64,000 bases of DNA from an uncultured Lentisphaeraceae bacterium (lineage in GTDB: Bacteria; Verrucomicrobiota; Kiritimatiellia; RFP12; DVOR01), in the NCBI GenBank assembly GCA_937892925.1, contig CALBHX010000116.1:35748-99747 (forward strand). The letters are read 5' to 3'. Position numbers and translations under genes: made by a program. Shown here piece by piece: positions 18,997 to 39,002 of the stretch. The notes beneath the pieces are model-generated. The model searched no databases and was not told the DNA's origin. It saw only the letters and a list, made by a program, of their open reading frames with translations. Within the stretch, counting starts at the first letter, position 1. Every line of letters begins with the position of its first letter.

Positions 18997-19586
18997 GGCT
19001 GCCCTTCAGTATGGGCGGCGGCGTAACTCATGAGCCAATCGTGCACAACTCCGCGCGGCAGCCCCATGACGTTGGAATAGGAACCGATTCGCCCGGCAAT
19101 GAGCAGCTCGCCATGTGCGTGAATATCATAGGCGCCTGCACGGTCATAGGGGCGGACGCGGTCGAGGTAGTCTTGCACGGTGGCGGCGCCATAGTGGCGG
19201 AAACGGAGACTGGTGGCTTCAATGCGCAGCTCCGGTTCGAGCGCATCTGGCGGCAGAAAGGCCACGGCGGTATAGACTTGCTGACATTTCCCGGCATAGG
19301 AGAGAAGCCATTCCTGCGCTTGCTGTTCGGTGCTCGGTTTGCCAAGGACATATCCTTGAAACCAGACGACGGTGTCGGCGGCCAGAATCAGGGCGCGGGG
19401 ATGATGTGTTTGTACGGCTCGCGCTTTTCTTCTGGCATTGGTGCCTACGGTGGCCACGGGGTCATCCGGAAAGGCTACTTCTTGACATCTGGAGAGGTGA
19501 ACCTCGAAGGATAGACCGAGTGCGCGGAGAATGGCGGCGCGACGCGGCGAGGCGGAGGCTAAAATAAGCGGGGGAAGGTTAGACAT
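18993..19586 (-). CDS. maf: Maf-like nucleoside triphosphate pyrophosphatase
   Basis: LILASASPRR N-terminus and 197-aa size. 4-nt overlap with lysE. Confidence 0.85.
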   Translation of the reverse strand: MSNLPPLILASASPRRAAILRALGLSFEVHLSRCQEVAFPDDPVATVGTNARRKARAVQTHHPRALILAADTVVWFQGYVLGKPSTEQQAQEWLLSYAGKCQQVYTAVAFLPPDALEPELRIEATSLRFRHYGAATVQDYLDRVRPYDRAGAYDIHAHGELLIAGRIGSYSNVMGLPRGVVHDWLMSYAAAHTEGQP

Positions 19587-19604
19587 GGGCGGGCTTGGCG
19601 GGGT

Positions 19605-20783
19605 TTAACGCGGTAGAGAAGTGAGGGCATTGCCCATGCGTTCAAGCGCGGCAGAAAGGGTGGCAGTTTGCGTGGCGATGTTGATGCGCACCCACCCGGG
19701 CGCTCCAAAGATGGCGCCATCGTGCAGCGCTACGCCATGGCGCAGGAAGAAGTCGCGCGGCGTTTCGCCTTTCAGGTGCGGCATGAGCGCCCGGCAGTCC
19801 ATAAAGGCCAGATAGGTGGCTTCGAGGCGGCAGAGGGGGAGTTTCCATTGTGCGGCGGCTTGCTCTAGCAGGGTGCGGTTGCGGCGGAGATAGGCAAGGA
19901 GACCTAGGCGCCAGGGCTCGCCGTGGCGGTATGCAGCTTCCGCACCGACCCAGCCAAAGAGGTTGACGGCGGGGACGATCTGGTCGTAGGAGCGCAGGAA
20001 ATGTTCACGAAGGGCGGGGTTTGGAATGACGGCGAAGGCACATCCGAGCCCGGGGATATTGAAGGTTTTGCTAGGCGCAATAAAGGCCATCAGCCGGCTG
20101 CGTTCGCTGTCGTTTTTGGCCAATGAGAGCATGGGGTGATAACGATAGGGGGCGTCGAGTACAAGCCCTCCGTGAATTTCGTCATCGGCTATTAGGAGGT
20201 CGTATGTTTCGGCGCAGTCAATAACGCGCCGGAGTTCAGCTTCGCTCCACAGGTGGCCGAGAGGGTTTTCCGGGTTGCAGAAGAGCCAGCCACCGGCACC
20301 AGCAGCTGGGAGGGTAATTTCTGGGGGGAGCGGCGCGCCAAAGGGCGCCAACGGCACTTTCCGTTCGCGCAGGCCAACTTGGGTAACTGCGGACATGAAG
20401 TGATGATAGACCGGCTCGCCAACAAGTACATCGCTATGGTCTGGGCGAATATCGCGCAGCATTTTGCAGAAGAGATTAAGCGAGGTAACAACGCCGGGTT
20501 GAGGCACCACCCAGTCGGGGTCAATGTTCCATCCATAGAGCGCGTGATGATAGTCGATCATGGCCTGAATGGCGCGTTTGGAATCGGCAGCATAACCGAA
20601 GCAGCCCTCCTGTGCCCGGGCTGTGAGCGCCTGAATGAGTTCGTCAAAGGCGCGGAAGTCCATATCTGCAATCCACAACGGGATGACATCCGGGGGAAAT
20701 TGCGACCATTTGATGCTGTCGCTGTTCCGCCGAGGAAGGGGTGTGTCAAAGAAGTCAAAGTCGTAGATCATAACAATTCTCAA
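19605..20783 (-). CDS. PatB/MalY-type pyridoxal-phosphate C-S lyase (class I/II aminotransferase fold)
   Basis: About 390 aa with the SDSIKWSQ.....PLWIADMDF N-terminal block typical of MalY/PatB cystathionine beta-lyases. Confidence 0.7.
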   Translation of the reverse strand: MRIVMIYDFDFFDTPLPRRNSDSIKWSQFPPDVIPLWIADMDFRAFDELIQALTARAQEGCFGYAADSKRAIQAMIDYHHALYGWNIDPDWVVPQPGVVTSLNLFCKMLRDIRPDHSDVLVGEPVYHHFMSAVTQVGLRERKVPLAPFGAPLPPEITLPAAGAGGWLFCNPENPLGHLWSEAELRRVIDCAETYDLLIADDEIHGGLVLDAPYRYHPMLSLAKNDSERSRLMAFIAPSKTFNIPGLGCAFAVIPNPALREHFLRSYDQIVPAVNLFGWVGAEAAYRHGEPWRLGLLAYLRRNRTLLEQAAAQWKLPLCRLEATYLAFMDCRALMPHLKGETPRDFFLRHGVALHDGAIFGAPGWVRINIATQTATLSAALERMGNALTSLPR

Positions 20784-22129
20784 GTGGTGGGAAGTTGGGA
20801 GAGGCGCTTCATTTGTGCTGCAAAGTCGTTGCCGCGTGCCCCCATGCCCGTGTATTGATCAAAACTGGCAGCTCCTGGGGAGAGAAGAATCGTATCGCCA
20901 GGGGCAGCATCGGCAAAGGCTTGTGCCACGGCTGCGGACAGCGTGCCGCATGGTGTGCAGGGGAGCATATGTTGCCAAGCCTGGCGGAGGGGCTCTTGAG
21001 CTTCACCGATAAGATAGGCATGGAGCGCAAATTGGCGCAGGTCATCTTCCAAAAAATCAAGATCCTGCTCTTTGAGTCGGCCGCCGGCAATGAGGCGCAC
21101 ACGCCCGCCGACCATCCGAAGGGCGGCTTGGGTGGCCGCCAGGGACGTAGCCTTTGAGTCGTCGATGAAAGTGACGCCGCGCAGCGTGCCCAGAGTCTGG
21201 AAACGATGGGGAAGCGGTTGATAGGCAGCAAACCCGGCCGCGATGGCTTCCGGGGAGAGCCCACACGCGGTGAGCATGGCGGCAATCAGCGCTGCGGCGT
21301 TTCCAAGCACGGGATTATTGAATGTTCCGGAGACCGGGATATGTATTTCTCCATGAACAATGCCGCCGGGGACATACCGCCAATCTACCCAAGGTTCTGA
21401 GCCGAACCGCAACAGCTCAACACCCTGCGGGATACCCAGCGGTGAGAGCCCCCAGGGAAGGAAGGCTTTACATATGCCGGGGCGCTGTGCTTGAAACAGG
21501 CGCATTTTCAGCCGGCTGTAAACGTCCATGCTCTTGTGTCGATCCAGGTGGTCGGCCTGAATGTTAAGGACGGCGGCAAGACGGGGGGCGAAGGTGCGTG
21601 TATACTCCATTTGGAACGAGGAAACTTCTGTTACGGCGATAACGCCGCGCCCAGCTTCGGGGCAATCTAATACACGTTCACACAATGGCGTCCCAAAGTT
21701 TCCTGCAGTAACGGCTGAGTGGCCGGCCAATGTCAGCGTATCAGTTAGGCACTTGACAACAGAGCTTTTACCCTTGCTTCCCGTAATGGCCAGAAGATCT
21801 CCCTGCCAATAGATGGAGCCGAGTTCCAGTTCTGAGATGATGGCAAGGCCTCGGTCGCGCGCCGCAATGACCCAGGGGTGTTCCGGAGAGAGCGCGGGTG
21901 ATACGATGGCCAGGTCATAGGAGCCATCGGGCAAGTGATCCCGCCCGGCACGCAGGCAACTGATTCCATCGGCTCCAAATTCTGCCAGCCGTTCAGCCGT
22001 CCAGTTTTCATCGACTACAGAGGCTTGCCCTTGCTGAGCCAGAATCAGCCGAGCCGCGGCGTGTCCACTTCGCCCGGCTCCAAGAATCAATGCATTCCGG
22101 TGGTCATAACGTGCCATGATTGCCCCCAT
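20780..22129 (-). CDS. murD: UDP-N-acetylmuramoylalanine--D-glutamate ligase
   Basis: Mur ligase domains (ITGSKGKSS, DDSKATS). Overlaps patB by 4 nt. The true start may be ATG at 22117. Confidence 0.85.
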   Translation of the reverse strand: MGAIMARYDHRNALILGAGRSGHAAARLILAQQGQASVVDENWTAERLAEFGADGISCLRAGRDHLPDGSYDLAIVSPALSPEHPWVIAARDRGLAIISELELGSIYWQGDLLAITGSKGKSSVVKCLTDTLTLAGHSAVTAGNFGTPLCERVLDCPEAGRGVIAVTEVSSFQMEYTRTFAPRLAAVLNIQADHLDRHKSMDVYSRLKMRLFQAQRPGICKAFLPWGLSPLGIPQGVELLRFGSEPWVDWRYVPGGIVHGEIHIPVSGTFNNPVLGNAAALIAAMLTACGLSPEAIAAGFAAYQPLPHRFQTLGTLRGVTFIDDSKATSLAATQAALRMVGGRVRLIAGGRLKEQDLDFLEDDLRQFALHAYLIGEAQEPLRQAWQHMLPCTPCGTLSAAVAQAFADAAPGDTILLSPGAASFDQYTGMGARGNDFAAQMKRLSQLPTT

Positions 22130-25100
22130 CCTGCTGCATTTGCGTGGTTAAGCGTTTCAATTCTGCCCGGCTGGCATCATCGAGTTCCTGTACACGGGCC
22201 TGAACTTCGGCCAAAAGCGCACGAGCTTGTTCTAGCTTCCCCTGGTGGAAGTTCAGCAGGGCGCGAGTGAGTTGGAGCCGAGGATCTCTAGGTTGTCCTT
22301 TGCGGAGCTCTTTGGCCATGGCGTCGGCGGTGTTCAGTTCGTTCTCAGCTTCTGACAGGCGCCCCATGGCAATTAGAGCGGCGGCGGCGGTTTCATATGC
22401 TACGGAGAGGTTTGGGGCTAATCGATAGGCCTGACGTGCGGTTGCCAGTGCGGCATTCCAGTCTCCTTGCCGCCGATAAACTTCGGCCAAGTCGTTGAAA
22501 GCTTCCGGAAGTGGGTGCTCAATCTGTGGATCGGTGGCAGCTTTCAGATAACGAGCGGCTCGGCTGAGGTCATTGGTTTGGAGGGCAAGGGAACCCATGA
22601 CATAGTTGGAGAGAGGGTGTAACCGATCCTGATAAAGGAAATCGCGAGCGTGGCGTTCGGCGGATACGCGGTCGTTTAGGCGGATATCCAGCGACAGGAT
22701 TGTATCGCGTAAGGCTGCCACGTCTGGATTTAGTGCATGGGCACGAAGATAAGCCGCGCGGGCGTTGGCTAACCGTCCTTCCCGTTCAGCCAATTGTGCC
22801 CGGATGATTTGAACGCAATAATGGTCGTCGGTCCCGGCGGCAGCGGACAGCCGCTGCAGGGTAGATGTGCGGAGGGTTTGAAGATCGCCTGCTTCCAATT
22901 GAAGCGTTGCCAGCATGGCCAGTGCTTCCACATGTTTGGGCTCGGATTTCAGGCAACGCTTTAATGCCGCCTGCGCCTGGATGGTCTCACCCGCTGCGGC
23001 GTGGCATAACGCCCGGTCATAGGCCAAAGCTTCCTTGCCCCCCAGAGCTTCGGCCTGCTCCAACAGTTGGAAGGCTTCTTTATAATTCTTCTCCTGCAAT
23101 AATGCTCGGATGAGCGATCGAAGATAGGCCAGGCGTTGGGCGTCATCTTTCGCATGGTCAAGCAGCCGGCGGTAACGTGCAACGGCTTCCTGACGCTTCC
23201 CAGGCGTTACATTATAAAGTGCGGCAATGGCTCCCTGGAACGCTTCACGCGTGTTGTCGTCGAGCATGGCAAGCGTCAAATCAAGACCGCTTAATGCTGC
23301 ACCTGTCTGCCCGCTCATGGCCCACTGGCCGGCTAACGCACTGATCAACTGCGGCGAACGGATATAACCAAACGTTTGACTAAGTGTCCATAACTGATAC
23401 TTTTTGCCGCTCAGCCGTTTTAACAAGTTACGAATCTCTCCTTCACACCACCTTTTCTTCTCCGGATGAAGCCCGCCGTGGATAAGTTCCAGAAGATTAA
23501 ACAAGGCTGAAATATTTTCCGAATCATAGGCATATACGGCAGCGAATTGTTCCCAAGCCTGCTCCAACTGCCCGGCATCTGCCAGGAAAAAGGCAGTATT
23601 GTTTGCGACGAAGCTTATCTGCCGGCGCACTCGCTCGGCTAATAGGCGAAGCGGCGCAGCGGCTTCGTCCAACACGGCCTGCGGCGGCAATGCCGGGAAA
23701 TAAACTGGCGTTGAATGCGTGGTTATGGCCTTATGCAGATGCGTTCGGTCAATCGCTCCGCGGTACCACAACCGTTCCGGAAGCGGGTAGCGATTCCCCG
23801 TGAACCACAAATCCGGCAGGCCAATCGTTACAAATCGGCTTCCGGCTTCTGCATCCTGCCGAAGCCAATCCTGAATGAACGGCACCATGCCCAAATCGAG
23901 TGAACGAATCAATTGTTCTCGTAATTCCGGCTTTGCTGCGAAATAACCAGAGTTCATCAGTGCTTGGCGCAAGCGGATCATGGCATCCGGGCGATGATCT
24001 TGTGCCAGCGAGAAATGGATTACTGGTATTTGACGCTCACGAAGGCGCAAAGCCAGCAGAGCATCCAGCGAAGGTTCCCCGAGAAGCCAGGTCTCTCCTC
24101 CTTTTGCACAATCCAGGAAAGCATCGGCCACACGCTTAGGTAAAGCCGCGGCAGCCGTATCTGCCTGCCATGCACGGATACTTGCCCAGCTGCCGCCCAA
24201 CACCAGCATCAACAGCAATACCGGCACGGTTCCCCACGCCAGCCATTGCCCCAAACGCCGCACAGTCGGCGACTCTTCCGCCCCCTCGGCAGTTCGGTTC
24301 CCCAACGCCAGCAATACTCCGCCTCCTGCCGTAAGACCAGCTGCAAAGGCCAACATGGCCGCCCAAACTGCAGCATTCGCCATCGGCCACTGCTTGTCCA
24401 AAAGCACGTACGGCGAAACCGGTATTGGAAAGACCGCAAGGATGACCAGTAAAACGAGCGTTACGTAGGTAAAGAGCACTGCAGGCGACCGCCGATTATT
24501 CCCGATATCTCGTCCTAGCAGAAGTGCTAACACAAACGGCAATACACCAAAGAAACTGATGAGCAGCCAACTGCCTTGCTGGATCGAAAGTACGCCAGCC
24601 AGCCAATTCCGGGCAAATCCGCTCGCGGCAGCCCGCACAGTCTCTGCTCCGCCGGGAGCCATTCCCAATAGGACTGCTGCCGCAAATGTTCCTGTTACCC
24701 CAAGGCCAAAGGGGAACAACCACCGCCCGATAAGCGACTTGACTCCAAATCGTTCATCACTTCTCCAGGCAGAAATTCCCAGGACAAGCCAGGCTGCGAT
24801 AGCAAGCACACCGACTGTTGGAGCCTCCGGAAGGGTCAACCCAAGGAAAAAGGAGGCAGCCAGAACTCGGTTTGGCGAAAAAGACGCCAATGCCCGCAAG
24901 GTAAACAACCAGCTTCCGGCCATGAGGAAAAGATCCACACTCTGTGCCTGCACGTGTGTTCCAGCACGAAGAAAAGCCGGCGTGAGCAGCAGAGCAAATG
25001 CCGTCGTCAGCGAAGCCGCCCGCATGGCTGGCTCCAGTGCCGGCAGGGAGCGCGGATCCTGTGTAGCCGCCTTCAAAAACGTTCGTACCGCTGCGCATAA

Positions 25101-25367
25101 GAGCGCTACTGTGCATCCGCCCAGCATGACTGCCGCTAGATTTAGCCCGGCTACTGTCTGCCCCGGCGGAAGCCAACGCCCAATCCCGCCGAGCAATGCC
25201 ATCGCTAACGGGTGCTGTACGTGGCCGCTTGACCAGACGCCAAGCGTTTGCGCCAACCAGTCAGCATCCGCTCCCGGCCATACCCAGGGAGCTCGCAGGA
25301 TAAACAGAATGATGAACGGCAGGCTCCATGGAAGCAGTGAAAGAGCCCAGGCAAAAGCGCGTTTCAT
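22104..25367 (-). CDS. large polytopic membrane protein (about 450-aa multi-TM N-domain, DUF2723/PMT-like) fused to a C-terminal TPR array of about 600 aa
   Basis: Many hydrophobic segments in the first 450 aa, then a long series of TPR-like repeats (A..Y..A....G....A). Start assigned to ATG at 25367 (MKRAFAWALSLL); the ORF-track start at 25442 is an extension. Confidence 0.6.
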   Translation of the reverse strand: MKRAFAWALSLLPWSLPFIILFILRAPWVWPGADADWLAQTLGVWSSGHVQHPLAMALLGGIGRWLPPGQTVAGLNLAAVMLGGCTVALLCAAVRTFLKAATQDPRSLPALEPAMRAASLTTAFALLLTPAFLRAGTHVQAQSVDLFLMAGSWLFTLRALASFSPNRVLAASFFLGLTLPEAPTVGVLAIAAWLVLGISAWRSDERFGVKSLIGRWLFPFGLGVTGTFAAAVLLGMAPGGAETVRAAASGFARNWLAGVLSIQQGSWLLISFFGVLPFVLALLLGRDIGNNRRSPAVLFTYVTLVLLVILAVFPIPVSPYVLLDKQWPMANAAVWAAMLAFAAGLTAGGGVLLALGNRTAEGAEESPTVRRLGQWLAWGTVPVLLLMLVLGGSWASIRAWQADTAAAALPKRVADAFLDCAKGGETWLLGEPSLDALLALRLRERQIPVIHFSLAQDHRPDAMIRLRQALMNSGYFAAKPELREQLIRSLDLGMVPFIQDWLRQDAEAGSRFVTIGLPDLWFTGNRYPLPERLWYRGAIDRTHLHKAITTHSTPVYFPALPPQAVLDEAAAPLRLLAERVRRQISFVANNTAFFLADAGQLEQAWEQFAAVYAYDSENISALFNLLELIHGGLHPEKKRWCEGEIRNLLKRLSGKKYQLWTLSQTFGYIRSPQLISALAGQWAMSGQTGAALSGLDLTLAMLDDNTREAFQGAIAALYNVTPGKRQEAVARYRRLLDHAKDDAQRLAYLRSLIRALLQEKNYKEAFQLLEQAEALGGKEALAYDRALCHAAAGETIQAQAALKRCLKSEPKHVEALAMLATLQLEAGDLQTLRTSTLQRLSAAAGTDDHYCVQIIRAQLAEREGRLANARAAYLRAHALNPDVAALRDTILSLDIRLNDRVSAERHARDFLYQDRLHPLSNYVMGSLALQTNDLSRAARYLKAATDPQIEHPLPEAFNDLAEVYRRQGDWNAALATARQAYRLAPNLSVAYETAAAALIAMGRLSEAENELNTADAMAKELRKGQPRDPRLQLTRALLNFHQGKLEQARALLAEVQARVQELDDASRAELKRLTTQMQQDGGNHGTL

Positions 25368-25371
25368 GGCA

Positions 25372-26034
25372 TTACTCCGGTTGGTCGGCGGCGGGTATTT
25401 CAGGTTCGGGAGGCCGGTGCCAATCGCCCTCGCCGCAGGCAAAGTCTGTTTCTACAGCTCGAATGTCGTCATTGGTGTCGGGCAGGCCGTCCGGTCCGCA
25501 GGAAAAAAGCACCGGCGCTTCAAATGGAGAGGTGGGCATCCGATAAACGTAAGGGGTTCCCCACGGATCTTTATAGGCCCAATTGATATAAGGCCCCTTC
25601 CATCCCGGCACGTGGTAGTTTTTAGCCAGGGCAAAAAGCCCCAGCCGCTGCTGTGGCCAGGAGCCGGTATGTATGCGGAACAGCGCCATGGCTTTGGCCA
25701 CGGTGGCCACGCTTCGGCGTGCCCGAAGCTGGTTCAGCGGTGTGGTCTTCTGCAGGATGGTTTTTGACGGGTTGCGGATGGCCAGCGTCAGACCCGCCCC
25801 GACAAACAGGAGAAGCATCAGCAGTCCAACCACCGTTTTGGGGGACTTTAATACCGCTGCGTCCAGTCGCAACCCAAGCTGCAGCCGTTCCTCTTCAGCT
25901 TTACGGCGGATGGTTTCAATTTTACGCTTGGCTTCACGCCGTTCTTCGGCGCTCCGCCAGCGCACCCCACGGACGCTTCCTTCCTTTCGGACGAGGCGAA
26001 GGGGTTTGGGCGGTTTGGAGAGATGCACGGCCAT
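25372..26034 (-). CDS. bitopic membrane protein with C-terminal GspG-type pseudopilin domain but no prepilin leader
   Basis: The C-terminus (GPYINWAYKDPWGTPYVYRMP...SCGPDGLPDTNDDI) matches the T2SS GspG globular domain. The N-terminus is a 60-aa charged/coiled segment plus one TM (VVGLLMLLLFVGAGLTLAI). There is no G/FTLIE cleavage-methylation motif. ATG at 26034. Confidence 0.6.
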   Translation of the reverse strand: MAVHLSKPPKPLRLVRKEGSVRGVRWRSAEERREAKRKIETIRRKAEEERLQLGLRLDAAVLKSPKTVVGLLMLLLFVGAGLTLAIRNPSKTILQKTTPLNQLRARRSVATVAKAMALFRIHTGSWPQQRLGLFALAKNYHVPGWKGPYINWAYKDPWGTPYVYRMPTSPFEAPVLFSCGPDGLPDTNDDIRAVETDFACGEGDWHRPPEPEIPAADQPE

Positions 26035-26047
26035 GCGTTTTATTTCC

Positions 26048-27064
26048 TTAAAAAAGCATGTCCTGCTGTCCGGCAGGGCGGAGACCCAATCGTTCAAAGG
26101 TTTTAGGCAAGGCCACACGTCCTTTCGGCGTTCGATCAAGATAACCTTCCTGAATCAGGTAAGGTTCATAGACCTCCTCTACGGTGTCTGCCTCTTCTCC
26201 CACGGCTACGGCAATGGTGGCAACGCCTACGGGCCCTCCGCCGAACTTTCCTGCAATCGCTTCCAGAATCCGCAGATCCATCTCGTCCAACCCCTGCGGA
26301 TCAATCTCCAATAATGCGAGTGCGCGGTCGGCAATCTCAGCGGTGATGCGGTTGTCTGCGCGTACTTGCGCATAATCGCGTACACGCCGGAGCAGATTGT
26401 TCGCAATACGCGGGGTGCCGCGGCTGCGCATGGCAATTTCCAGCGCGCCCGCTTCATCAATTCCAACATTCAGTTTTCCTGCACTGCGCATGATGATGCG
26501 GGAGAGCTCTTCGTGAGAGTAGTAATCCAGCCGATTCTGTAGCCCGAAACGTGAACGCAGGGGCGCAGAAATCAAACCGCTGCGGGTCGTGGCGCCTACC
26601 AGGGTGAATCGGGGCAGCTCGAGGCGGACGCTCCGGGCATTGGGCCCTTGGTCAATCATGATATCGATGACGAAGTCTTCCATTGCCGAATACAGATATT
26701 CTTCAACGGTTCGCTGCATTCGATGGATTTCGTCAATAAATACAATGTCTCCTGGTTCCAAGGATGTTAAAAGCCCGGCCAGATCCGAGGGCTTGTCGAT
26801 AACCGGCCCGCTAGTGGCTTTTACATGCACGCCCATTGCCTCGCCAAGGATGTAGGCCAGCGTGGTCTTACCCAGCCCCGGAGGTCCAGAAAGCAGTACG
26901 TGATCCAGCTGCTCCCCGCGCCCCTGCGCTGCTTCAACGGCCAACATCAGGCGGTCACGCACTTTTTGCTGCCCCAGAAAGTCTGCAAACCGGGTTGGGC
27001 GTAGCCGGTTGTCAAACGAGGCGTTCCGTTGATTCATTTCTTCCGAAGGTCTGGGCGTTTCCAT
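26048..27064 (-). CDS. ruvB: Holliday junction branch-migration ATPase RuvB
   Basis: [11 protein letters not shown] Walker A, DEIHR motif, 338 aa. Confidence 0.95.
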
Positions 27065-27345
27065 ACTCCTATATTATAGCGAAAAGGGTTTGCCCCGCAC
27101 GGGATTTTTACCGTGGTTTCTCACCGGGGCCCTGGGATTGTTTTATAGATCCGCCCCGGCTTCGAGGCGAGCCTGGGGCAGGTTGGCTCCGGATTCGGGG
27201 TGAGTCTATCTTTCCCTTGGGCGATGCGGTTTGGCGCTCTGCTCAGATTGTCAATGAGGGAAGAGGGGCTTTTGGGGAAGGAAAAAGAAAAGGGGAAGCC
27301 GGCTTTTCCCTCGCAAAGATGCACGAAATGGAAGCGGGAACGGTG

Positions 27346-28491
27346 TTATTTGCCGCGGATGTATTGGACGCGCAGGGGTGCGCGTAATCGGCGCAAGGTG
27401 GCTTCCTGAAGAGCTTCCCAGGCTTCAAAGGTGGCGGGCGCGGCTTTGCTCCATCCGGCGCCCCAGTAGTAGGTGAGGGGGGCGTTGGCTGATTGGGGGA
27501 ACGTGGCAATGAGATGATCCACGGCTCCAGCTCGTTTGGCCTCCTGCGGGGGAAGCGGAAGGTACATGGTTTCGGCGGCCGGGGTGGGGAAGAGGGCGCC
27601 GATGAAAAGCGTACCCTGACCTTTTCCGGGCGGGTCTGTGGGGTCGGCATAAGCCAGGCGGTTTGGGGTGCATCGACTGGCTCCGTGGTCATGCCGAACG
27701 ATGCCGACTACAGGCGTGAAGCCATGCCCCAGACCTTCGTAGGAAACGGTGGTGCGGTTGAAGGGCGTGTGGGCGTCAAGCGAGATGAGGCGGCGTTCAA
27801 TAATCTGTGTTCCGTTAAACGTGCGCGGAGGGTAAGTGAGGCGTACGGTAAAACGCAGAGGTCCATTGTCGAGGATGTCGCAGGCGGCGTACGCCCAGGG
27901 GTAGAGTAGGTGGCCGTCCTGGAGCAGACCGGTGGCGCCGGCGCCGAGCGTGGGGCCGACTTTGTAGCAGTCAAGGCCGTTTCCATGGTCTTTGTGGTAG
28001 GTAATGCCGCGCTTGAGCTCATCGTAGTAGCGCTTTTCTACAACGGGTTGGGTGGTGGCGCGCTTGCACCAGACATCATAGCCAAAGGCGCGTTCGCCAG
28101 ACTTCTGGAGCGCAGGGCCATAGGCGCGGAAGGCCACAAGGTCATTTTCCCAGGCCACATCGTCTACACGTTCTGGATAGACGCGGCCGCAGGCGATCGT
28201 GTTGTAGGAAAAGGGCATCTGGGTGGGGGTGAGAATATAGCGGGCTTCCCCGTTGGCCGGAAGGCTGACGGGGAAGAGGAGCTTGCCGTCGTAGGTACGC
28301 TGGCTGGGGAGTAATTCACCGGTTTCGGTATGGACGAGCCAATGTCCTTCGGGCACACCGGGCACCTCCACGATTTCTCGGCTGCGCGGTTCATTGAGCG
28401 GGTTTGCCACATGGACGGTGTGAGGCTGCACTTTGGCTGCGGCAAGGCAGGTGAAAAAGACGGAGAAAAGGAGTGTCAGAGAAGATTTCAT
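27346..28491 (-). CDS. secreted DUF4861-like protein (glycan-utilisation-associated family)
   Basis: Signal peptide (LLFSVFFTCLAAAKV). 381 aa. The family assignment is from recall of the overall sequence character and is tentative. Confidence 0.35.
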   Translation of the reverse strand: MKSSLTLLFSVFFTCLAAAKVQPHTVHVANPLNEPRSREIVEVPGVPEGHWLVHTETGELLPSQRTYDGKLLFPVSLPANGEARYILTPTQMPFSYNTIACGRVYPERVDDVAWENDLVAFRAYGPALQKSGERAFGYDVWCKRATTQPVVEKRYYDELKRGITYHKDHGNGLDCYKVGPTLGAGATGLLQDGHLLYPWAYAACDILDNGPLRFTVRLTYPPRTFNGTQIIERRLISLDAHTPFNRTTVSYEGLGHGFTPVVGIVRHDHGASRCTPNRLAYADPTDPPGKGQGTLFIGALFPTPAAETMYLPLPPQEAKRAGAVDHLIATFPQSANAPLTYYWGAGWSKAAPATFEAWEALQEATLRRLRAPLRVQYIRGK

Positions 28492-28520
28492 CGTATGTTT
28501 CCGAGTGGAGGCATGGCGGC

Positions 28521-29606
28521 TCAGGGGTGGATCGCTGCGGCATCTTTAAGGATGTCGGCCAATTGTTGTTTGATTACGCGCATGGAAAGGTGCTGCTCAA
28601 AAAAGGTGCGAGCCACGGGGCGCAGCGCGGTGAGTGCTTCGCGCTTGTTCAGCCAAGGTTTGACGGCTTCGGCTAGAGCCTGCGGGTCGCCCGGCGGAAT
28701 AAAGGTGATGGCGGGGCAGGTTTTGGCTTCTGGCGGATAACCGGTGCAGAACTCGTTGATGACGGGGCGGCAGCAGGCCATGGCTTCATAGACTTTGTTG
28801 CCGATCACGCGAGAGGCTTTCTCCGTGGTGCCGAAAACGCCAAGAACGATGTCGGCTGAGCGGATCACGCGTGGAACATCAACGTAGGGCACTTTGTTCA
28901 GAAAGGTGATGTTGGTGATACCCTTGGCTTTGGCTTCGGTAGCGGCCTTGTAGGCGCCCCAACCGAGGAAGTCCCAGTGAATGTTCAGCCCCTGCGTCAG
29001 GCGGGCGGCTTCAACAATCGTTTCTGTGCCGTGCAGGGGGAGGTAAGCTCCGTGATAGAGGATGCGGAGCGGAGCGGCAGGGTCGTGTGGCGGGTCTTCT
29101 CCTTCGGCGGCGGGCTTGAATACCTGTTCATCGGTTCCTGTTAGCAGAACGCGAAGTTTCTCGCGCGGCACGGACATGTGTTGGTGAAAAAAGTCGGCAT
29201 GGCAGGAGGTGTCGCAGAGGAGAAGATCAACAGCGTTGAAGAGCTGGGTTTCCCAAGCAAGAAGCCGCTTGGCACGCCGTTCATCAGCAGACCACTTTTG
29301 CTGTTCGAGCACCTTTTTGTCCCAGGCGGAGATCATAGGGTCGAAGAGCACGGGGATGCCGCGGCGGTGAGCCCACCGGCAGGCGGCGGCGGCATCGCGC
29401 TGGCGCGCCACGGGCACCCAGACCACATCGGGGCGGACGTCTTTCGGTCCGCGCAGCGCGAACTCCCAATCACCCAGTGCGCAGCAGGCTTTGATTTGAA
29501 AGAATCGGACATCCCACCCAAGCTCCTTGAACAGGGCTATGTAGACGCGGTTGCGCGAATACCCGGGGTCGAAACGTCCCCACCAAAGAACGGTTTTCTG
29601 TGCCAT
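28521..29606 (-). CDS. glycosyltransferase (GT-B fold, GT4-like)
   Basis: C-terminal region with the E..A.G.P motif context (VYEAMACCRPVI) typical of GT4. ATG at 29606. Confidence 0.55.
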   Translation of the reverse strand: MAQKTVLWWGRFDPGYSRNRVYIALFKELGWDVRFFQIKACCALGDWEFALRGPKDVRPDVVWVPVARQRDAAAACRWAHRRGIPVLFDPMISAWDKKVLEQQKWSADERRAKRLLAWETQLFNAVDLLLCDTSCHADFFHQHMSVPREKLRVLLTGTDEQVFKPAAEGEDPPHDPAAPLRILYHGAYLPLHGTETIVEAARLTQGLNIHWDFLGWGAYKAATEAKAKGITNITFLNKVPYVDVPRVIRSADIVLGVFGTTEKASRVIGNKVYEAMACCRPVINEFCTGYPPEAKTCPAITFIPPGDPQALAEAVKPWLNKREALTALRPVARTFFEQHLSMRVIKQQLADILKDAAAIHP

Positions 29607-30776: not shown

Positions 30777-32429
30777 CTAATATTTCAGGCGGCTGGCTCC
30801 CAGATATTCCCGCAAGATGGAGTTTGTCGGCACATCGGCCATGGGCATGGCGGCAAAGTTCTGCAGAAAACAGGAGAGCCGGCGCGCATGGACGAACTCC
30901 GGGTGATAGGGTTTGATCTGGTTCAGCAATGGCCCGGCCAAGGTTTTCAAGACTGGAATTTCATAATCCAGGGCAGTATTGAACACCGCATCTGCGCAAT
31001 GCTGGAAGGGAAAGATCCACCGCTCTTCGCCAGCTCGGACACTGGGCCATAACCGGAGGGTTTCACGGGGGCTCCGCCCCCGGAATTGCCCATCGCGTAC
31101 CATTCGACGCAGCAGTCGATTGTCAATGGTGGAAATTCGGTTGTTCCGGTCGATGGCCAGCTGTGTAAGGGCGTTCACGTAGATTAGGAATTTCTCCTGA
31201 CGGGGAATATCCGGCGTAAGATCCGGATTGAGCGCGTGGATGCCTTCAATCACGAGAACGCCGCGCTGGGGATCCAGCGCCAGTGTTTCATCGGAGTCAT
31301 ATCCTTCCCGTTGTTTGAAGTCGAACTTCCGCAGTGCGATGGTTTCTCCCCTTAACAGGCGGATTAGGTCAAGATTCAGGCGCGGCCGATCAACGGCATC
31401 CAGGTGTTCATAGTCCAGATTGCCCGCTGCATCGCGCGGATTACGGGCGTCTCCAACAAAATAATTGTCGGTGGAAAGCAACGCCGGCTTCAGCCCCAAC
31501 ACACGCAGGTGTGTACAAAGGCGCATGGCGAAGGTCGTCTTCCCGGCAGAGCTGGGGCCGGCCACCAACACCACGTGCGGCCGCGGCACGCGAGAGGCAA
31601 TCTGATCGGCAAAGGATGCCAGACGGCGTTCGTGCAGGGCTTCAACGGTGTTGATTACATCGGCCACTGAGCCATCGGCAATGGCGGCGTTCAATTCTCC
31701 TGCGTTTCGGATGCCGATGATTTCGCCCCATCGCAAATGCTCGGCATAAACTTCAAAAAGGAAGTCGTAAGGCGGCATGGGGTCGAGGGCTTTCGGCGTT
31801 TTGACGCCGGGGAATTCCAGTACAAACCCTTCGCGCAGAGGCACAATATCGAAGAGCTCAAGTGCCCCGGCGTGAGTGGCCATGATTCCCTGCGGCAAAT
31901 CATAGAACGCACCACAGACAACGAGCGCCAACGCGGGCGGGTTACGGTGCGCCAGCAGATTGACCTTGTCTTCCTGCCCTGCGGCACGGAAACGTTCCAA
32001 AATCTCGGCATAGGGGAAAAGCCGATGCGCGATGGGGGTGTCGGCGGCGATGAGTCTGGCTACGCCTGCCCGAAGCGCAGCCACCTGCGCCTCCCGCTCT
32101 GTTGGCGGAACGTCCCATGTCCAATAGAGCGCGTTGTGCCCGAAACTTTGACGAATCCGGCAATCAATACGCGGGAAAGCTTCATGAAGGACTTTGGCCA
32201 CCAGAAAACAGAGCGTTCGCCGATAGACCTGCCATCCTTCGCTGTCGGCCAGTGTCAGCGGGCGAATCTGGGCATCGTACAACATGGGTGCATCCAGCGG
32301 CACCACATCGTTGTTCATGAGCGCTGCCAATACAGGCAACCCGTCAACGAACGCGGGAAGCACCGCGCTCAACGGGGTGCCGCGTTCGGCCTGAAGGCAT
32401 TCTCCGGTGTCCAGTTCGAGGGTGATCAT
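30777..32429 (-). CDS. uridine-kinase/phosphoribulokinase-family P-loop kinase with roughly 250-aa N-terminal ThrRS-N/TGS-like domain
   Basis: Walker A GPSSAGKTTFA, and STDNYF, VLVIEGIHAL and RRMVRDGQFRGRS blocks match Udk. The extra N-terminal domain is of unknown role. Confidence 0.7.
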   Translation of the reverse strand: MITLELDTGECLQAERGTPLSAVLPAFVDGLPVLAALMNNDVVPLDAPMLYDAQIRPLTLADSEGWQVYRRTLCFLVAKVLHEAFPRIDCRIRQSFGHNALYWTWDVPPTEREAQVAALRAGVARLIAADTPIAHRLFPYAEILERFRAAGQEDKVNLLAHRNPPALALVVCGAFYDLPQGIMATHAGALELFDIVPLREGFVLEFPGVKTPKALDPMPPYDFLFEVYAEHLRWGEIIGIRNAGELNAAIADGSVADVINTVEALHERRLASFADQIASRVPRPHVVLVAGPSSAGKTTFAMRLCTHLRVLGLKPALLSTDNYFVGDARNPRDAAGNLDYEHLDAVDRPRLNLDLIRLLRGETIALRKFDFKQREGYDSDETLALDPQRGVLVIEGIHALNPDLTPDIPRQEKFLIYVNALTQLAIDRNNRISTIDNRLLRRMVRDGQFRGRSPRETLRLWPSVRAGEERWIFPFQHCADAVFNTALDYEIPVLKTLAGPLLNQIKPYHPEFVHARRLSCFLQNFAAMPMADVPTNSILREYLGASRLKY

Positions 32430-32443
32430 GCGCCAACTGCCGT

Positions 32444-32827
32444 TTAGTTGGTGAGATCGTCTTCTGTGTTCAGGTTACCATCGGCTCCAGCGGAGCGGAT
32501 CGTGTATTTTTTCCCTTCCACTTTATAATCAAAGGGAAGCCCCCAAGCATCATTCAGCGCACCGGATTTGAGGAGCGGCTCATCGTCATTGATGCCAACC
32601 GTCAGATCCTCAAGCGTCTTGGGCAGACGGCCGGTTTCCATCTTATAGATTTGAATGGCCTGCTCGATTGCACCAATGGAGGTGAGGGTTGCGGCTTTAC
32701 GCGATTTATCGCCTGCGCCGCCAAAGTTGACCACCACCACCGAGCCTAGAATGCCCAGGATAGCAATGACGAGAAGCAGCTCTACGAGGGTAAAGCCTGC
32801 GCGGCGGGAATGATTGGAGAAGTTCAT
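32444..32827 (-). CDS. gspG: type II secretion/type IV pilus major pseudopilin GspG
   Basis: Canonical prepilin leader RRAGFTLVELLLVIAILGIL with Glu+5, plus the GspG C-domain (DAWGLPFDY...SAGADG). Confidence 0.85.
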   Translation of the reverse strand: MNFSNHSRRAGFTLVELLLVIAILGILGSVVVVNFGGAGDKSRKAATLTSIGAIEQAIQIYKMETGRLPKTLEDLTVGINDDEPLLKSGALNDAWGLPFDYKVEGKKYTIRSAGADGNLNTEDDLTN

Positions 32828-32849
32828 GCGTTTATTTCCTTTCCGGGGA

Positions 32850-34088
32850 TTATTGACCCATAGCCGAAGTTGCGGAGAAGACGGCCGAGAGAATGGCTAT
32901 CGCCACAAAGCCGACAATAGCCGCCACAAAGAGAATCAGCAGCGGCTCCAGCGCCGTGGTGAAGATCTTGATGTTGCGATCCAGCTCGGCCTCATAACGG
33001 CGGCCGATGTGCCCCAACGCGGCGGGCAGGTTGCCCGTCTGTTCCCCCAATGCCATCATGTCTGTCATCATGCGGGGGAAGACGCCGCTCTGAGCTAATG
33101 GCCCAGAGATAGTTGTGCCGTCGGTTACACGTTCGCGCGCAGTTTTCAATGCGGCGCCGATTACGGCATTGCCGCATGTTTCTTCCGAGATGCGCAGGGC
33201 ATTGAGCACATTGACGCCGTTGGCCAGGAGCGTTTGCATGGTATAAGCTAGGGAAGCATAGGCTCCGCTGGCGATGAGACCCTTGATCAACGGAACGCGC
33301 AGCTTGAAGGCATCCCACTGCGTCCGCCCGGCACCGTTAATCCACTTGCGGAACAGGACGATGCCGACAACAATTCCTACAGCATAGAAGACGCCATATT
33401 TCAAAAGTCCGTCACTCATCCCGATGAGCATTCGCGTGGGTAATGGAAGCTCGCGCCCCATACTGCTGAAAAGGGTGGTGAACTGCGGCACAATTTTGAC
33501 CATGGCGAACACAACGGCTCCAACGCCCATGGCCAGAACAATCGCCGGATACGTCAGCGCCGAGACAATTTTGCTCTTCATGTTCTGATTGCGCTCGTAG
33601 TGTTCCGAAAGACGATGGAGCACTTCCACCATGGCTCCGGAGGCTTCGCCTGCGCGCACCATATTCCCGTAAATCGGCGGGAAACTGCGCGGATGCGCAT
33701 CCACAGCGTCTGAAAAGGCTTCGCCTCGCAGAATTCGATCGCGCAGGTCTGCCGAGACGGCACAAATAGGGTCGGAAGGTTCCCCCTGGTTGGCCAGCGC
33801 ATTCAGCGCTGCGCCCAGCGTCATTCCTGCTTCGAGCAAATCTGCCAGCTCAGAGGAAAAGAGAAGCACTTCGGCAGGCTTCATTCGCGCTGTGCTTGGA
33901 GCCCGGGCGGTTTTGGTTTTTCCGGGCACAGCCTGACTTCCTGCCGTATTCCCGCTTTCTGTTATGGAGAGCGGCATCAATCCCTGCGCCTTCAGAGCGG
34001 CGAGAGCACCCCGGCGGTCGGCAGCGTCTAATGCTCCCGACACCTTGGCTTTTGCCCGATTCAATGCAACATAATTGAAACTCGCCAT
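32850..34088 (-). CDS. gspF: type II secretion/type IV pilus inner-membrane platform protein GspF/PilC
   Basis: 412 aa with two GspF repeats and three TM segments; family-typical sequence throughout. Confidence 0.85.
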   Translation of the reverse strand: MASFNYVALNRAKAKVSGALDAADRRGALAALKAQGLMPLSITESGNTAGSQAVPGKTKTARAPSTARMKPAEVLLFSSELADLLEAGMTLGAALNALANQGEPSDPICAVSADLRDRILRGEAFSDAVDAHPRSFPPIYGNMVRAGEASGAMVEVLHRLSEHYERNQNMKSKIVSALTYPAIVLAMGVGAVVFAMVKIVPQFTTLFSSMGRELPLPTRMLIGMSDGLLKYGVFYAVGIVVGIVLFRKWINGAGRTQWDAFKLRVPLIKGLIASGAYASLAYTMQTLLANGVNVLNALRISEETCGNAVIGAALKTARERVTDGTTISGPLAQSGVFPRMMTDMMALGEQTGNLPAALGHIGRRYEAELDRNIKIFTTALEPLLILFVAAIVGFVAIAILSAVFSATSAMGQ

Positions 34089-34206: not shown

Positions 34207-35214
34207 TTACTCCAAAGTCGGGGCGGGTTCATTTGGTGTTGGGTGCGGGCGGTTGTTCGGGGTGCGCAGCCGGCGCAGAAACGAGACGGCGGATGCAAGT
34301 GCTTCCGCGCGGGCTTTAGGCTGCCCGGGCACGGTGATAAAAAGATGGACGCTTCCGGGGATAACCTGCCGTTGGATGGGGAGGCCGCGTTGGGTGCATA
34401 CGGCGGTGAAGTGTTCACCCTGATCGGCGAGGATATCCCGCTCGGCGGCTACCAGGAGTGTAGGCGGCAGATGTTCCGGCGGCACGCGTGCAGGTGAGAC
34501 TAGGGCATCGCTGCTCCGGACGTTTTCGGGTGCGTAGGCTCGGTTGAAGGCTTCCATCAGGGAAGCATCAAGTCCAAATCCGCGGGCATACTTTGTCCAG
34601 GAGGCAGTGCGGCTGGTGATGGCATCGACCACAGGGTAAAAAAGCAAAAGGCCGTCAAGCGCAGTCGTTCGGGCTAGCGCGAGCGCCAGATTCCCGCCTG
34701 CAGAATCGCCTGCTGCGATCCATTGGCCGGGGAAACATTGCTGGGCTTTGGCCAATGCGTCCCGGGCATCTTCTATGGCGGCGGGATAGGGGTGTTCGGG
34801 AGCCAGGCGATAGGCCAGAGAGAGAACGCGCTGCCCGGAGGCTTTAGCTAGGGCGGCACAGAAGGCATCACAGGAATCCAGCCCGCCGATTACCCAGCCG
34901 CCGCCATGGAGATAGAGTACGGTTTGCGTCGGTTCGGGCTTGTACCGCGGGGTATACACGCGATAGGGAAGGGTACGCCCGGGCACCTGGAACGTGCCGT
35001 TAGAGATCGCCAGAGCATCGTCAGAAGAATATGGAGAAGCCTTTTTGAGCCGCTCTTTCCGAATGGCCTGAAGTGCTTCAGGCTGGCCGGCGCAGGCCTG
35101 TTCAATGGCTTTCGCCTGACGGCTTTGGATCTCGGTTGGCAGGCTTGAAAGAAAGGTTTGGGCTTCTGGAGAAAGGAGCCCGGAAGCAAAGATAAGCGGA
35201 AGGATCGGGTTCAT
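34207..35214 (-). CDS. secreted alpha/beta-hydrolase fold-3 esterase/lipase (HSL family)
   Basis: HGGGW oxyanion motif and GDSAGG nucleophile elbow. Start placed at ATG 35214 (MNPILPLIF, signal peptide) to avoid overlap with the polA stop. Confidence 0.75.
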   Translation of the reverse strand: MNPILPLIFASGLLSPEAQTFLSSLPTEIQSRQAKAIEQACAGQPEALQAIRKERLKKASPYSSDDALAISNGTFQVPGRTLPYRVYTPRYKPEPTQTVLYLHGGGWVIGGLDSCDAFCAALAKASGQRVLSLAYRLAPEHPYPAAIEDARDALAKAQQCFPGQWIAAGDSAGGNLALALARTTALDGLLLFYPVVDAITSRTASWTKYARGFGLDASLMEAFNRAYAPENVRSSDALVSPARVPPEHLPPTLLVAAERDILADQGEHFTAVCTQRGLPIQRQVIPGSVHLFITVPGQPKARAEALASAVSFLRRLRTPNNRPHPTPNEPAPTLE

Positions 35215-35234
35215 GTGCGGGAATTGAAACAGAA

Positions 35235-37982: not shown

Positions 37983-37998
37983 GGGAAGGTCTCCGGGA

Positions 37999-38400
37999 TT
38001 ATTTGGCCGATACGTCGGCGGCTTGCTGCCAGGCACGGGCAAGCTGGGCAAGCGGCTGTGTGAGCACTTCGTTGGGAAGTTTGGACAAGTGTGTTTTCAA
38101 TGCGGCGATAAAGCGGTCATTTTCTGCATTGTCATAGATACAGTGCGTGGGATAGAGCGTAAGATAAAGCGCCATGGGGGTGGTCTCTGGGGGGAGTGCA
38201 CGCGCTTGTCCTCGCCGGAGGCCATAGGCGGTCTCCAAGGCGGCCAGAAAAGGGATGTTTTCCGGAGTCCAGGCGGGGTTGGATTGTCGTCCGAAAACCC
38301 GGGTGAACCGTCGCCGCTGGGCGCCCCGGTTCCAGATATAAATCAACGCAACGCACAACATGATGCAGAGGATATAGGAAAGAATACGAGTGCCACTCAT
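37999..38400 (-). CDS. hypothetical small membrane-anchored protein
   Basis: One N-terminal TM (ILSYILCIMLCVALIYIW). No recognisable domain. 4-nt overlap with the upstream gene. Confidence 0.4.
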   Translation of the reverse strand: MSGTRILSYILCIMLCVALIYIWNRGAQRRRFTRVFGRQSNPAWTPENIPFLAALETAYGLRRGQARALPPETTPMALYLTLYPTHCIYDNAENDRFIAALKTHLSKLPNEVLTQPLAQLARAWQQAADVSAK

Positions 38401-39002
38401 CGGGAGATCCTTCGTATACGTTTTACCGGCCTAGCACAGCAGGGGCGCCATGAACGCCGTTTAACATGGGCATGCGCGGCGGAGAGAAGTGAGATTTTGC
38501 CTTCGAGTAATGCCAGAACACGCGTTTGAATGGCCGGAAGATCCTGCGGCTTGAGTCCGGGGTCTTCAATCGGGAAAAGATCTCCGGTGCCCCGTTGTTC
38601 ATAGAGACGGATTCTGCGCCCATCAGGCGCCCGGCTGATGCGGCGTTCGATGAATTGCCGGCTGCGTTCGAGCAGGATGGCCAGTACGTAACAGACACCA
38701 CGATCGGCAGGTGCGTTTCGTTCCAGCAAAACCCGCAGCAGGTGCTCGGCAGTTTCTTTTCGGAGGGGGGCTTCCCGGGTTTTGCTTTTGGCGGTGTTGG
38801 CCAAGGTGAACGCCCAGGCTCCGGGGAGCGATTGTAATGTTTCCGGCGGTAATGCGGAAAAGCAGGCGGGGCAAAGGTCTCGCCGAGCAAAGGTGCCATC
38901 TTCTGTCAATTCCAACAGCGAATGCCCGGAGCCGCCGGGCTCAAAGACTTTTCCGCAGGCGGAACAGCGAGCGCTGCGCGGTTTAATGTTCCAGTCTGCC
39001 AT
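38397..39002 (-). CDS. hypothetical protein with N-terminal CxxC...CxxC zinc ribbon
   Basis: CSACG...(20 aa)...CPAC at the N-terminus; the remainder is helical and Arg-rich. No family recognised. Confidence 0.4.
   Translation of the reverse strand: MADWNIKPRSARCSACGKVFEPGGSGHSLLELTEDGTFARRDLCPACFSALPPETLQSLPGAWAFTLANTAKSKTREAPLRKETAEHLLRVLLERNAPADRGVCYVLAILLERSRQFIERRISRAPDGRRIRLYEQRGTGDLFPIEDPGLKPQDLPAIQTRVLALLEGKISLLSAAHAHVKRRSWRPCCARPVKRIRRISR

Follow-up and report, generated by a model that had tools for sequence, protein, structure and literature searches.

In a stretch of 64,000 nucleotides (nt; the window) from an uncultured Lentisphaeraceae bacterium (GenBank:GCA_937892925.1, contig CALBHX010000116.1), the gene located at 25372-26034 on the minus strand, designated gene X, was found to encode a protein of 220 amino acids (aa) that has the fold of GspG, the major pseudopilin of type II secretion systems (T2SS), and has no prepilin leader. 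We are confident that X, a protein of pseudopilin fold, is anchored in the membrane, is not cleaved and does not polymerise. The GspG fold itself is known; new is a GspG-fold protein that has turned into a leaderless bitopic membrane protein. Directly downstream of X lies the gene for a large membrane protein with tetratricopeptide repeats (TPR), designated TPRmem. The combined explanation proposed below, that X is such an anchored protein and also the partner or acceptor of a transferase encoded by this neighbour, is in our judgement evenly poised.

The reading frame of gene X starts with an ATG at 26034 and ends with a TAA at 25372-25374, and the product consists of a basic tail of 66 aa, one uncharged transmembrane (TM) helix and a GspG-fold head. 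The stop codon of ruvB (26048) is overlapped by a Shine-Dalgarno sequence, AAGGAA, with its end 9 nt ahead of the ATG. In a mechanical list of open reading frames (ORFs), a longer frame begins at a TTG at 26139 and runs into ruvB. When the frame was re-read up to this TTG, no prepilin motif was found in the extra residues, and the extended stretch was missing from all relatives, every orthologue beginning at the same M-[AS]-V. Since the extension overlaps ruvB, has no prepilin-like motif and is missing from relatives, the re-examined start codon gives no sign of a hidden cleavage site in X. All counts out of 61 given below are based on an alignment of 61 members of the X family; no further paralogue of X was found within the window.

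Residues 101-190 of X matched Pfam T2SSG (PF08334) with an E-value of 3.3e-16. The GspG model TIGR01710 aligned residues 73-192 to profile positions 8-131 only and scored 56.5 bits, which is below the equivalog cut-off of 88.85 bits. When the profile of the 61-member family was searched against the PDB, PulG (5wda) was matched with an E-value of 1.2e-14, the alignment beginning inside the TM helix, and seven more GspG-type structures came next. The AlphaFold2 model of X had a mean predicted local distance difference test score (pLDDT) of 85 and a predicted TM-score (pTM) of 0.61, with helices at residues 29-53, 59-63, 65-87, 92-96 and 98-123 followed by a small sheet; across residues 101-210, the means of 10-residue blocks were 86-97. 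This model has the arrangement of a pilin, with an alpha1N-like hydrophobic helix, an alpha1C-like helix and strands. All 11 Foldseek matches to the PDB at E<0.01 were GspG, PulG, EpsG or XcpG, with a probability of 1.0 (3g20, 5wda, 5o2y, 3fu1 and 4lw9 among them), and the next match had an E-value of 2.3. The GspG-type pseudopilin fold proposed for X in the original prediction, which had been made from the sequence alone, is therefore borne out by domain, profile and structure comparisons alike.

Besides the alpha-beta fold of the GspG/PulG/EpsG/XcpT head (PF08334, TIGR01710), X has a calcium loop of the same type (GPDGxPxTxDD). The loop, from C179 to residue 190 (CGPDGLPDTNDD), matches PGPDGVPNTEDD of GspG from enterohaemorrhagic Escherichia coli (EHEC; 3G20), in which D117, T122 and D125 are the side-chain ligands of calcium (PMC3396595). 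All three ligands are kept as D182, T187 and D190 in X, and they are invariant in the 61-member family. Unlike GspG, X has a C-terminal DFxCxEGxW segment; Cys179 and Cys200 are present together in 54/61 members and probably form a disulfide, as judged from this co-occurrence. In the head motif MPxSPFEAP, S169 is near-invariant. On average, the C-terminal tails that follow the head are about 20 aa long and contain 3.5 Ser/Thr; at least one Ser/Thr occurs in 58/61.

The hydrophobic helix of X aligns with alpha1N of GspG from about position 3-8 onward, but the class III signal peptide of GspG is missing. Signals of this class consist of a short basic leader that ends in Gly-1, precedes Phe or Met at +1 and is removed by the prepilin peptidase. 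Neither N_methyl (PF07963) nor TIGR02532 matched X, while the canonical GspG encoded at 32444-32827, which had been pointed out as an internal control, matched both in addition to T2SSG. PulG E5 aligns to G70 of X, a column occupied by Gly in 50/61 relatives and by Glu in none, so that X has Gly in place of Glu+5. The residues preceding the helix are L-K-S-P-K-T-V-V-G, with no Gly/Ala-Phe junction and hence neither Gly-1 nor Phe+1; S64-P65-K66 followed by V/T-x-x-G is conserved in the family instead. The helix itself (residues 68-86) is essentially uncharged, with a hydrophobic stretch of about 19-21 residues. The claim that X has neither a prepilin leader nor Glu+5 was thus upheld, also upon re-examination of the start codon.

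The tail in front of the helix, another difference from GspG, had been described as 60 aa rich in Lys, Arg and Glu; its charged character was confirmed, but its length is 66 aa, with 20 K/R and 9 D/E (net +11), and the tails of the family average 18.9 K/R versus 7.9 D/E. Thirteen of its positions are invariant or near-invariant in the family (W26, R27, R32, R37, K38, I39, A41, I42, R43, R44, S64, P65 and K66). In the window copy the helix core reads K36-R37-K38-I39-E40-T41-I42-R43-R44, the family consensus at 41 being Ala. The tail alone matched nothing in Pfam below E=0.03, and its profile gave only insignificant charged-helix matches in the PDB (best E=0.036). Given the 13 near-invariant positions and a helix core common to the subfamilies described below, the conservation pattern indicates that the tail is under purifying selection and is not a disposable leader.

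The simplest topology suggested by the sequence is a single uncleaved signal-anchor helix, the best reading also of the anchor originally predicted, with the tail in the cytoplasm and the head in the periplasm. A cytoplasmic tail is indicated by the Zn ribbon that precedes the helix in 43 representatives of the superfamily, and a periplasmic head by the net charge of +11 on the tail and by the Cys179/Cys200 pair. With no prepilin-peptidase site, no Glu+5 and a large charged N-terminal domain, X should be incapable of being processed, extracted and stacked into an endopilus. That it polymerises is, we infer, unlikely, since Glu5 and a cleavage site are both missing and the tail of 66 aa is charged.

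X is not a singular oddity, since the leaderless superfamily to which it belongs is very large. A word-indexed homologue search gave about 60 relatives of 200-250 aa with 44-70% identity, and the few that were named carried the labels 'GspG [Kiritimatiellae]' or 'type II secretion system protein GspG'. An exhaustive hidden Markov model (HMM) search of 1.84 billion cluster representatives yielded 10,691 matches at E<=0.001, mostly ordinary GspG; most of the best 150 of these aligned from profile position about 25-35, that is, from the cytoplasmic helix, to the end of the head. Classes were counted on the 147 of these 150 that were outside the query alignment. A charged tail plus TM helix was present in 83, a CxxC...CxxC zinc ribbon together with tail and TM helix in 43, and other types made up 20. 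A regular-expression scan detected a prepilin motif in 1/147 and in none of the 126 leaderless representatives, to which the plan [Zn-ribbon]-basic helix-TM-T2SSG is common. The superfamily was defined by a (K/R)(K/R)xIxxIxR helix core located 15-25 residues ahead of the only TM helix, by T2SSG after this helix and by the lack of a prepilin motif, all of which are features of X. Alignment of the tails across subfamilies revealed that this core is kept, with I42 and R44 invariant. Among 20 superfamily clusters looked up, an organism name was available for one (the P0079 cluster, Kiritimatiellae) and only a protein name for two. Full-text literature searches found no description of the leaderless T2SSG architecture; the large family of which X is a member goes under the label GspG and lacks a separate name.

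Stand-alone forms of 170-250 aa are the majority among the leaderless representatives. In many members of 380-990 aa, the tail-TM-T2SSG module lies N-terminal to a complete or partial glycoside hydrolase family 2 (GH2) glycosidase (e.g. P0094, P0097, P0102, P0110 and P0121). These five and P0104 carry DUF4982 and the GH2 C5 domain; the full GH2 set including the TIM barrel was found only in P0094, the GH2 N-terminal domain is kept in P0110 and P0121, and P0097, P0102 and P0104 have C-terminal accessory domains only. This domain distribution suggests a progressive decay of the GH2 part. P0078 (465 aa) has a Zn ribbon, the basic helix and the TM helix, followed by three tandem T2SSG heads. Modular pilins, e.g. 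PilB of Streptococcus sanguinis, retain their class III signal and undergo polymerisation. The GH2-fused members resemble them in using a pilin module as the N-terminal carrier of a functional C-terminal domain, whereas the class III signal has been lost from the leaderless superfamily.

In a genome scan with one genome per species, an orthologue of X was found in 27 loci, all in Kiritimatiellae-type metagenome-assembled genomes from animal guts (e.g. 'Candidatus Spyradenecus' and 'Lentisphaeraceae') and representing about 27 species. Based on tblastn with the window proteins, the order ruvB-X-TPRmem is kept in every orthologous locus reaching far enough. In 26/27 loci, i.e. wherever the contig reaches upstream of X, ruvB adjoins X. 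Of the 22 loci extending beyond TPRmem, 20 have murD next, the exceptions being L028 and L029; the outer flanks of the block vary. Identities to the window copies in the orthologous loci were 85-91% for RuvB, 54-73% for MurD, 47-70% for X, 33-58% for the C-terminal half of TPRmem and 24-43% for its membrane domain. One contig holding the complete ruvB-X-TPRmem-murD at 70-90% identity (CAVDHG010000016.1) is labelled Agathobacter rectalis, a Firmicute, yet it is most likely mis-binned, and a locus labelled Elusimicrobiales is similar.

The gap between the X stop codon and the TPRmem ATG (25367) is exactly 4 nt, as had been stated, with GGAG ahead of the ATG. Among 24 orthologous loci, the stop and start codons overlap as ATGA in 13, the spacing is -8 in three and +2 or +3 in three, and an overlap or a gap of at most 3 nt is found in 19. 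Because such overlaps or tiny gaps recur, X and TPRmem are almost certainly co-translated, as far as gene spacing can tell; the coupling anticipated in the original prediction is conserved. The same prediction had called for a search for the pairing across genomes of the Planctomycetes-Verrucomicrobia-Chlamydiae (PVC) group. The pairing does not extend over the PVC group; a single clade of gut Kiritimatiellae, for the most part uncultured degraders of glycans, is where it occurs. An extension of the pairing to distant homologues of either gene was considered and rejected: in seven independent loci, hisI directly precedes a relative of X at 35-38% identity, one relative lies after folP and another has a GH123 gene next to it, and two distant TPRmem homologues are preceded by unrelated genes and have no X-like neighbour.

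From its ATG, TPRmem has 1087 aa, rather than the 1089 aa originally given. Multiple Pfam TPR matches were located in residues 720-1060, and a homologue search with the full-length protein was dominated by TPR proteins and gave three matches. Two distant homologues, P0076 and P0077, carry PF11028 (TMEM260-like, formerly DUF2723; E=7e-12 and 1.5e-8, respectively). When a profile made from the N-terminal 500 residues of 21 TPRmem orthologues was compared with P0076 by hhalign, the two aligned with a probability of 99.8% and E=8e-28 over residues 13-509, across the PF11028 region. Direct PF11028 matches were obtained in 4/21 orthologues and were weak (best E=0.0012), and a PDB profile search with the membrane domain gave nothing. 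At the level of sequence, these comparisons point to TPRmem as a probable divergent TMEM260-like glycosyltransferase C (GT-C) membrane protein with a TPR domain. The TPR domain is predicted to be periplasmic, based on about 11 predicted TM helices and the collinearity with TMEM260-like proteins.

To our knowledge, no substrate has been assigned to bacterial homologues of TMEM260. The human protein TMEM260, an O-mannosyltransferase of the GT-C type, has 11 TM helices, a TPR domain on the luminal side and the catalytic Asp52 in loop 1, and its description refers to bacterial proteins only as 'distant homologs in bacteria' (PMC10214176). As in the TMEM260/TMTC-type O-mannosyltransferases (PF11028), a multi-pass N-terminal domain of TPRmem is followed by what appears to be an extracytoplasmic TPR domain; unlike them, TPRmem is bacterial and very divergent, the acid in loop 1 is variable, and a far longer stretch, of about 670 aa, makes up the helical/TPR region. 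Loop 1 of TPRmem contains the invariant P31-G32, followed by Glu in 14/21 orthologues and by A-D-A-D in the window. A135, H138 and Q140 (consensus ATHFQWQ), N291 and R293 (GANRR), E361 and R370 are invariant in the membrane domain, and these residues could bind the donor if TPRmem is an enzyme.

The gene arrangement closest to X-TPRmem among documented ones appears to be pilA-tfpW of Pseudomonas aeruginosa group IV strains. There, glycosylation of the pilin requires tfpW, the gene directly downstream of pilA. Its product belongs to the GT-C type and has its N-terminus in the cytoplasm, 11 TM helices, a C-terminal TPR domain in the periplasm and a DDX motif (bioRxiv 10.1101/2020.04.19.049825). 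As in pilA-tfpW, and by extension pilA-tfpO, a pilin-fold gene is followed by that of a polytopic protein with about 11 TM helices, a cytoplasmic N-terminus and a large C-terminal TPR domain. The X-TPRmem pair resembles this pilin glycosylation pair because the neighbour of X appears to be a TMEM260-like GT-C protein with a TPR domain. The two differ in that X is probably not a filament subunit, that TPRmem is related to TMEM260/DUF2723 and is like TfpW in arrangement and topology, and that the GT-C acidic motif is not invariant in TPRmem, glycosylation of X being here only a proposal.

We propose that X would be bitopic in the inner membrane, the N-terminus being cytoplasmic and the C-terminus periplasmic, and would be anchored by one uncharged helix descended from pilin alpha1N. 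Its calcium-stabilised head, probably disulfide-bonded, would stand in the periplasm as part of a static pseudopilin-fold module that is neither processed, nor pulled from the membrane, nor stacked. X and TPRmem would be made together. In the most likely mechanism, proposed by analogy with pilA-tfpW, the TPR domain would bind the periplasmic head of X or its Pro/Thr/Glu-rich tail, and a TPRmem transferase using a lipid-linked sugar donor would have X as its dedicated acceptor or non-catalytic partner. In place of the 'adaptor' of the original prediction, 'acceptor or partner of a glycosyltransferase' is more specific, since the TPR protein appears to be a divergent TMEM260-like GT-C protein. 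On the analogy with pilA-tfpW, a partnership of X with TPRmem has close to an equal chance of being real, perhaps slightly less; glycosylation of X specifically is a more doubtful suggestion, which we consider possible and rather improbable.

Several observations weigh against such a partnership. The clade with the X-TPRmem pairing is fairly narrow, as the identities of RuvB indicate, so part of the synteny may be inheritance, and the conserved block also holds ruvB and murD, the functions of which are unrelated. In a mirror-tree partial Mantel test, X and the N-terminal part of TPRmem gave r=0.54 (p=0.001), but X and MurD gave r=0.52; the co-evolution signal is therefore not specific and was not used as evidence. 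Other subfamilies of the superfamily have quite different neighbours, and the role of the core module is thus not tied to a TMEM260-like transferase. As for the transferase itself, the first 500 residues of TPRmem matched nothing in Pfam, the window protein having no PF11028 match even at E<=10, and the AlphaFold2 model from a three-sequence alignment had pLDDT values <50 over residues 1-460. The acid next to the PG of loop 1 is not invariant, none being adjacent in six orthologues, and TPRmem may for this reason not be catalytic. The C-terminal tail of the window X contains no Ser/Thr, as in only 3/61 members, which weakens the simple form of the idea that the tail is the acceptor; a head residue such as S169 would then have to be the glycosylation site.

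Instead of serving a transferase, X might work with the T2SS or type IV filament machinery, either as a non-extractable anchor or terminator, docking under the growing endopilus via its GspG-like helix and head, or as a coupler like GspL/GspM, in which the basic helix or Zn ribbon would link a cytoplasmic component to periplasmic pseudopilins. The homology of the TM helix and head to GspG over their whole length fits this explanation, a conserved cytoplasmic helix implies a cytoplasmic partner, and a gspF-gspG pair (gspF, 32850-34088, T2SSF) lies 6 kb from X in the window. The bitopic topology is also that of assembly-platform proteins: GspL, GspM, GspC, PilN and PilO combine a cytoplasmic N-terminus of short or medium length with a single TM helix and a domain in the periplasm. 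Their likeness to X is one of topology only, since the periplasmic fold of these proteins is ferredoxin-like or PDZ, whereas X has a pilin head, no sequence similarity to them and no machine genes beside it. X and every sampled relative lie outside T2SS gene clusters, and the alpha1C positions aligned to E44 and D48 of PulG, which we take to form inter-subunit contacts, are K114 and L118 in X. The GH2 fusions suit a membrane anchor better than a machine part, and a role in the filament machinery is in our opinion unlikely. Alternatively, the [tail]-TM-T2SSG module could be a generic inner-membrane anchor and stalk for periplasmic carbohydrate-active proteins, and in X, where it stands by itself, it would recruit or space envelope enzymes and not be a substrate. 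In many clusters this module is joined at the N-terminus to complete or partial GH2 glycosidases, a GH123 gene follows one relative, and P0078 has its three tandem heads; a plain anchor, however, needs neither a cytoplasmic helix conserved over all subfamilies nor an invariant calcium loop, and the stand-alone forms are in the majority. We regard this explanation, too, as improbable.

If the helix of X were instead a long Sec signal peptide cut by signal peptidase I (e.g. after TLA at 83-85), X would be exported and released as a soluble periplasmic protein. Small residues do occur near the end of the helix (LTLA|IRNP) and extended signal-peptide regions exist in other systems, but the hydrophobic stretch was modelled as part of one helix (65-87) with block-mean pLDDT of 80-97 and aligned with pilin alpha1N, the 66-aa tail is conserved, strongly charged and Zn-ribbon-bearing in relatives, and the family consensus has no conserved AXA-like site. 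Release from the membrane is accordingly very unlikely. Hardly credible at all is that X is a true pseudopilin with an unusually long leader, which the prepilin peptidase would cleave at a non-canonical position; solely the homology of helix and head to GspG speaks for it. S64-P65-K66 stands where a Gly/Ala-Phe junction is expected, Glu+5 is missing, N_methyl and TIGR02532 match the control GspG and not X, and leaders are normally neither conserved over 66 residues nor Zn-ribbon-bearing.

An anchored, non-polymerising X has consequences for annotation, since leaderless proteins that are named GspG, and lack all the features required of a pseudopilus subunit, will inflate the counts of T2SS and pilins in PVC genomes. 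In evolutionary terms, a pilin fold with the class III signal lost and a conserved cytoplasmic domain gained would represent a route from filament subunit to fixed membrane protein, of which no description was found in full-text literature searches. X and TPRmem also provide a testable candidate for a bacterial TMEM260-type glycosylation pair with the acceptor encoded next door and sitting with murD. More speculatively, and with little expectation that it will prove right, leaderless GspG-fold proteins may, in Kiritimatiellae and perhaps further PVC bacteria, constitute core envelope components of a class so far unrecognised, the pilin fold having turned into a fixed transmembrane coupler: the cytoplasmic helix or Zn ribbon would contact a cytoplasmic partner, and the calcium-bound head would organise glycan-handling machines (or cap or anchor an endopilus). 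If so, a TfpW/TMEM260-like transferase would be served in the X clade and GH2 or GH123 glycosidases in others, and among the members X would be the first with a link to a dedicated partner for protein glycosylation. The features described here are listed in Table 1.

Table 1. Location of gene X, its domains and neighbouring genes in the window, and of hisI-T2SSG loci in other contigs
Feature	Position	Strand	Basis
Gene X, leaderless GspG-fold protein, coding sequence including TAA stop	25372..26034	-	ORF, T2SSG match, 61-member alignment, AlphaFold2 model
X residues 1-66, conserved basic tail, predicted cytoplasmic: MAVxxSKPPKP motif, helix 29-53 with core KRKIExIRR, SPK before TM	25837..26034	-	Family alignment
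X residues 67-87, single TM helix, homologous to pilin alpha1N, without Gly-1/Phe+1/Glu+5	25774..25836	-	TIGR01710 and PulG 5wda alignments, AlphaFold2 helix 65-87
X residues 98-205, GspG-fold head, predicted periplasmic, with family-specific C-terminal extension DFxCxEGxW	25420..25743	-	Foldseek, AlphaFold2, Cys pair
X residues 179-190, calcium-binding loop CGPDGLPDTNDD	25465..25500	-	Match to EHEC GspG loop
X residues 206-220, variable Pro/Glu-rich C-terminal tail HRPPEPEIPAADQPE	25375..25419	-	Family alignment
TPRmem, 1087-aa polytopic membrane protein with TPR domain	22104..25367	-	TPR Pfam matches, hhalign to PF11028 protein
TPRmem membrane part, about 11 TM, residues 1-420	24108-25367	-	
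TPRmem helical/TPR domain, about 670 aa	22107-24107	-	
ruvB, first gene of conserved block, stop 13 nt before X start	26048..27064	-	RuvB_N/AAA_lid_4/RuvB_C
murD, directly downstream of TPRmem, annotated start overlapping TPRmem end	20780..22129	-	Mur_ligase domains in orthologous loci
Canonical GspG, internal control, RRAGFTLVELLLV...	32444..32827	-	N_methyl + T2SSG, TIGR02532
hisI-T2SSG loci	L005:456-1605, L006:317-1466, L033:987-2140, L034:5477-6600, L036:4658-5783, L092:2583-3727, L093:3140-4151		

A promoter and terminator scan gave fewer matches than shuffled sequence, and no sigma-70-like promoter was found across 19000-28600. The sole notable site was a terminator-like hairpin, GGGAAAAGCCGGCTTCCC, followed by a T-rich run at 27293-27310 on the minus strand, in the 280-nt gap between a DUF4861 gene and ruvB. 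This hairpin, upstream of ruvB, fits with ruvB-X-TPRmem-murD being a separate transcription unit.

The T2SS genes at 32444-34088 on the minus strand are gspF and gspG only, with none of gspE, gspD and the minor pseudopilin genes adjacent. Upstream of gspF on the same strand are an alpha/beta hydrolase gene (34207-35253) and then polA (35235-38051), near which two minus-strand ORFs of 1047 aa (39016-42159) and 201 aa (38397-39002) had no Pfam match at E<=1e-5.

In the seven hisI loci, hisI (phosphoribosyl-AMP cyclohydrolase, PRA-CH; PF01502) is directly upstream of a leaderless T2SSG gene, which usually encodes a Zn ribbon. A gene for a 550-aa phosphoribulokinase (PRK)-like protein lies ahead of hisI in two of these loci, L033 and L036. 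A gene for a 550-aa uridine-kinase/PRK-like protein is also located directly downstream of the canonical gspG in the window (30777-32429, minus strand). Its product is 55% identical to that of L036:2972-4636, the gene upstream of hisI and a Zn-ribbon GspG-like gene. From these positions, the 550-aa PRK-like gene adjoins a GspG-type gene in both lineages, in different arrangements.

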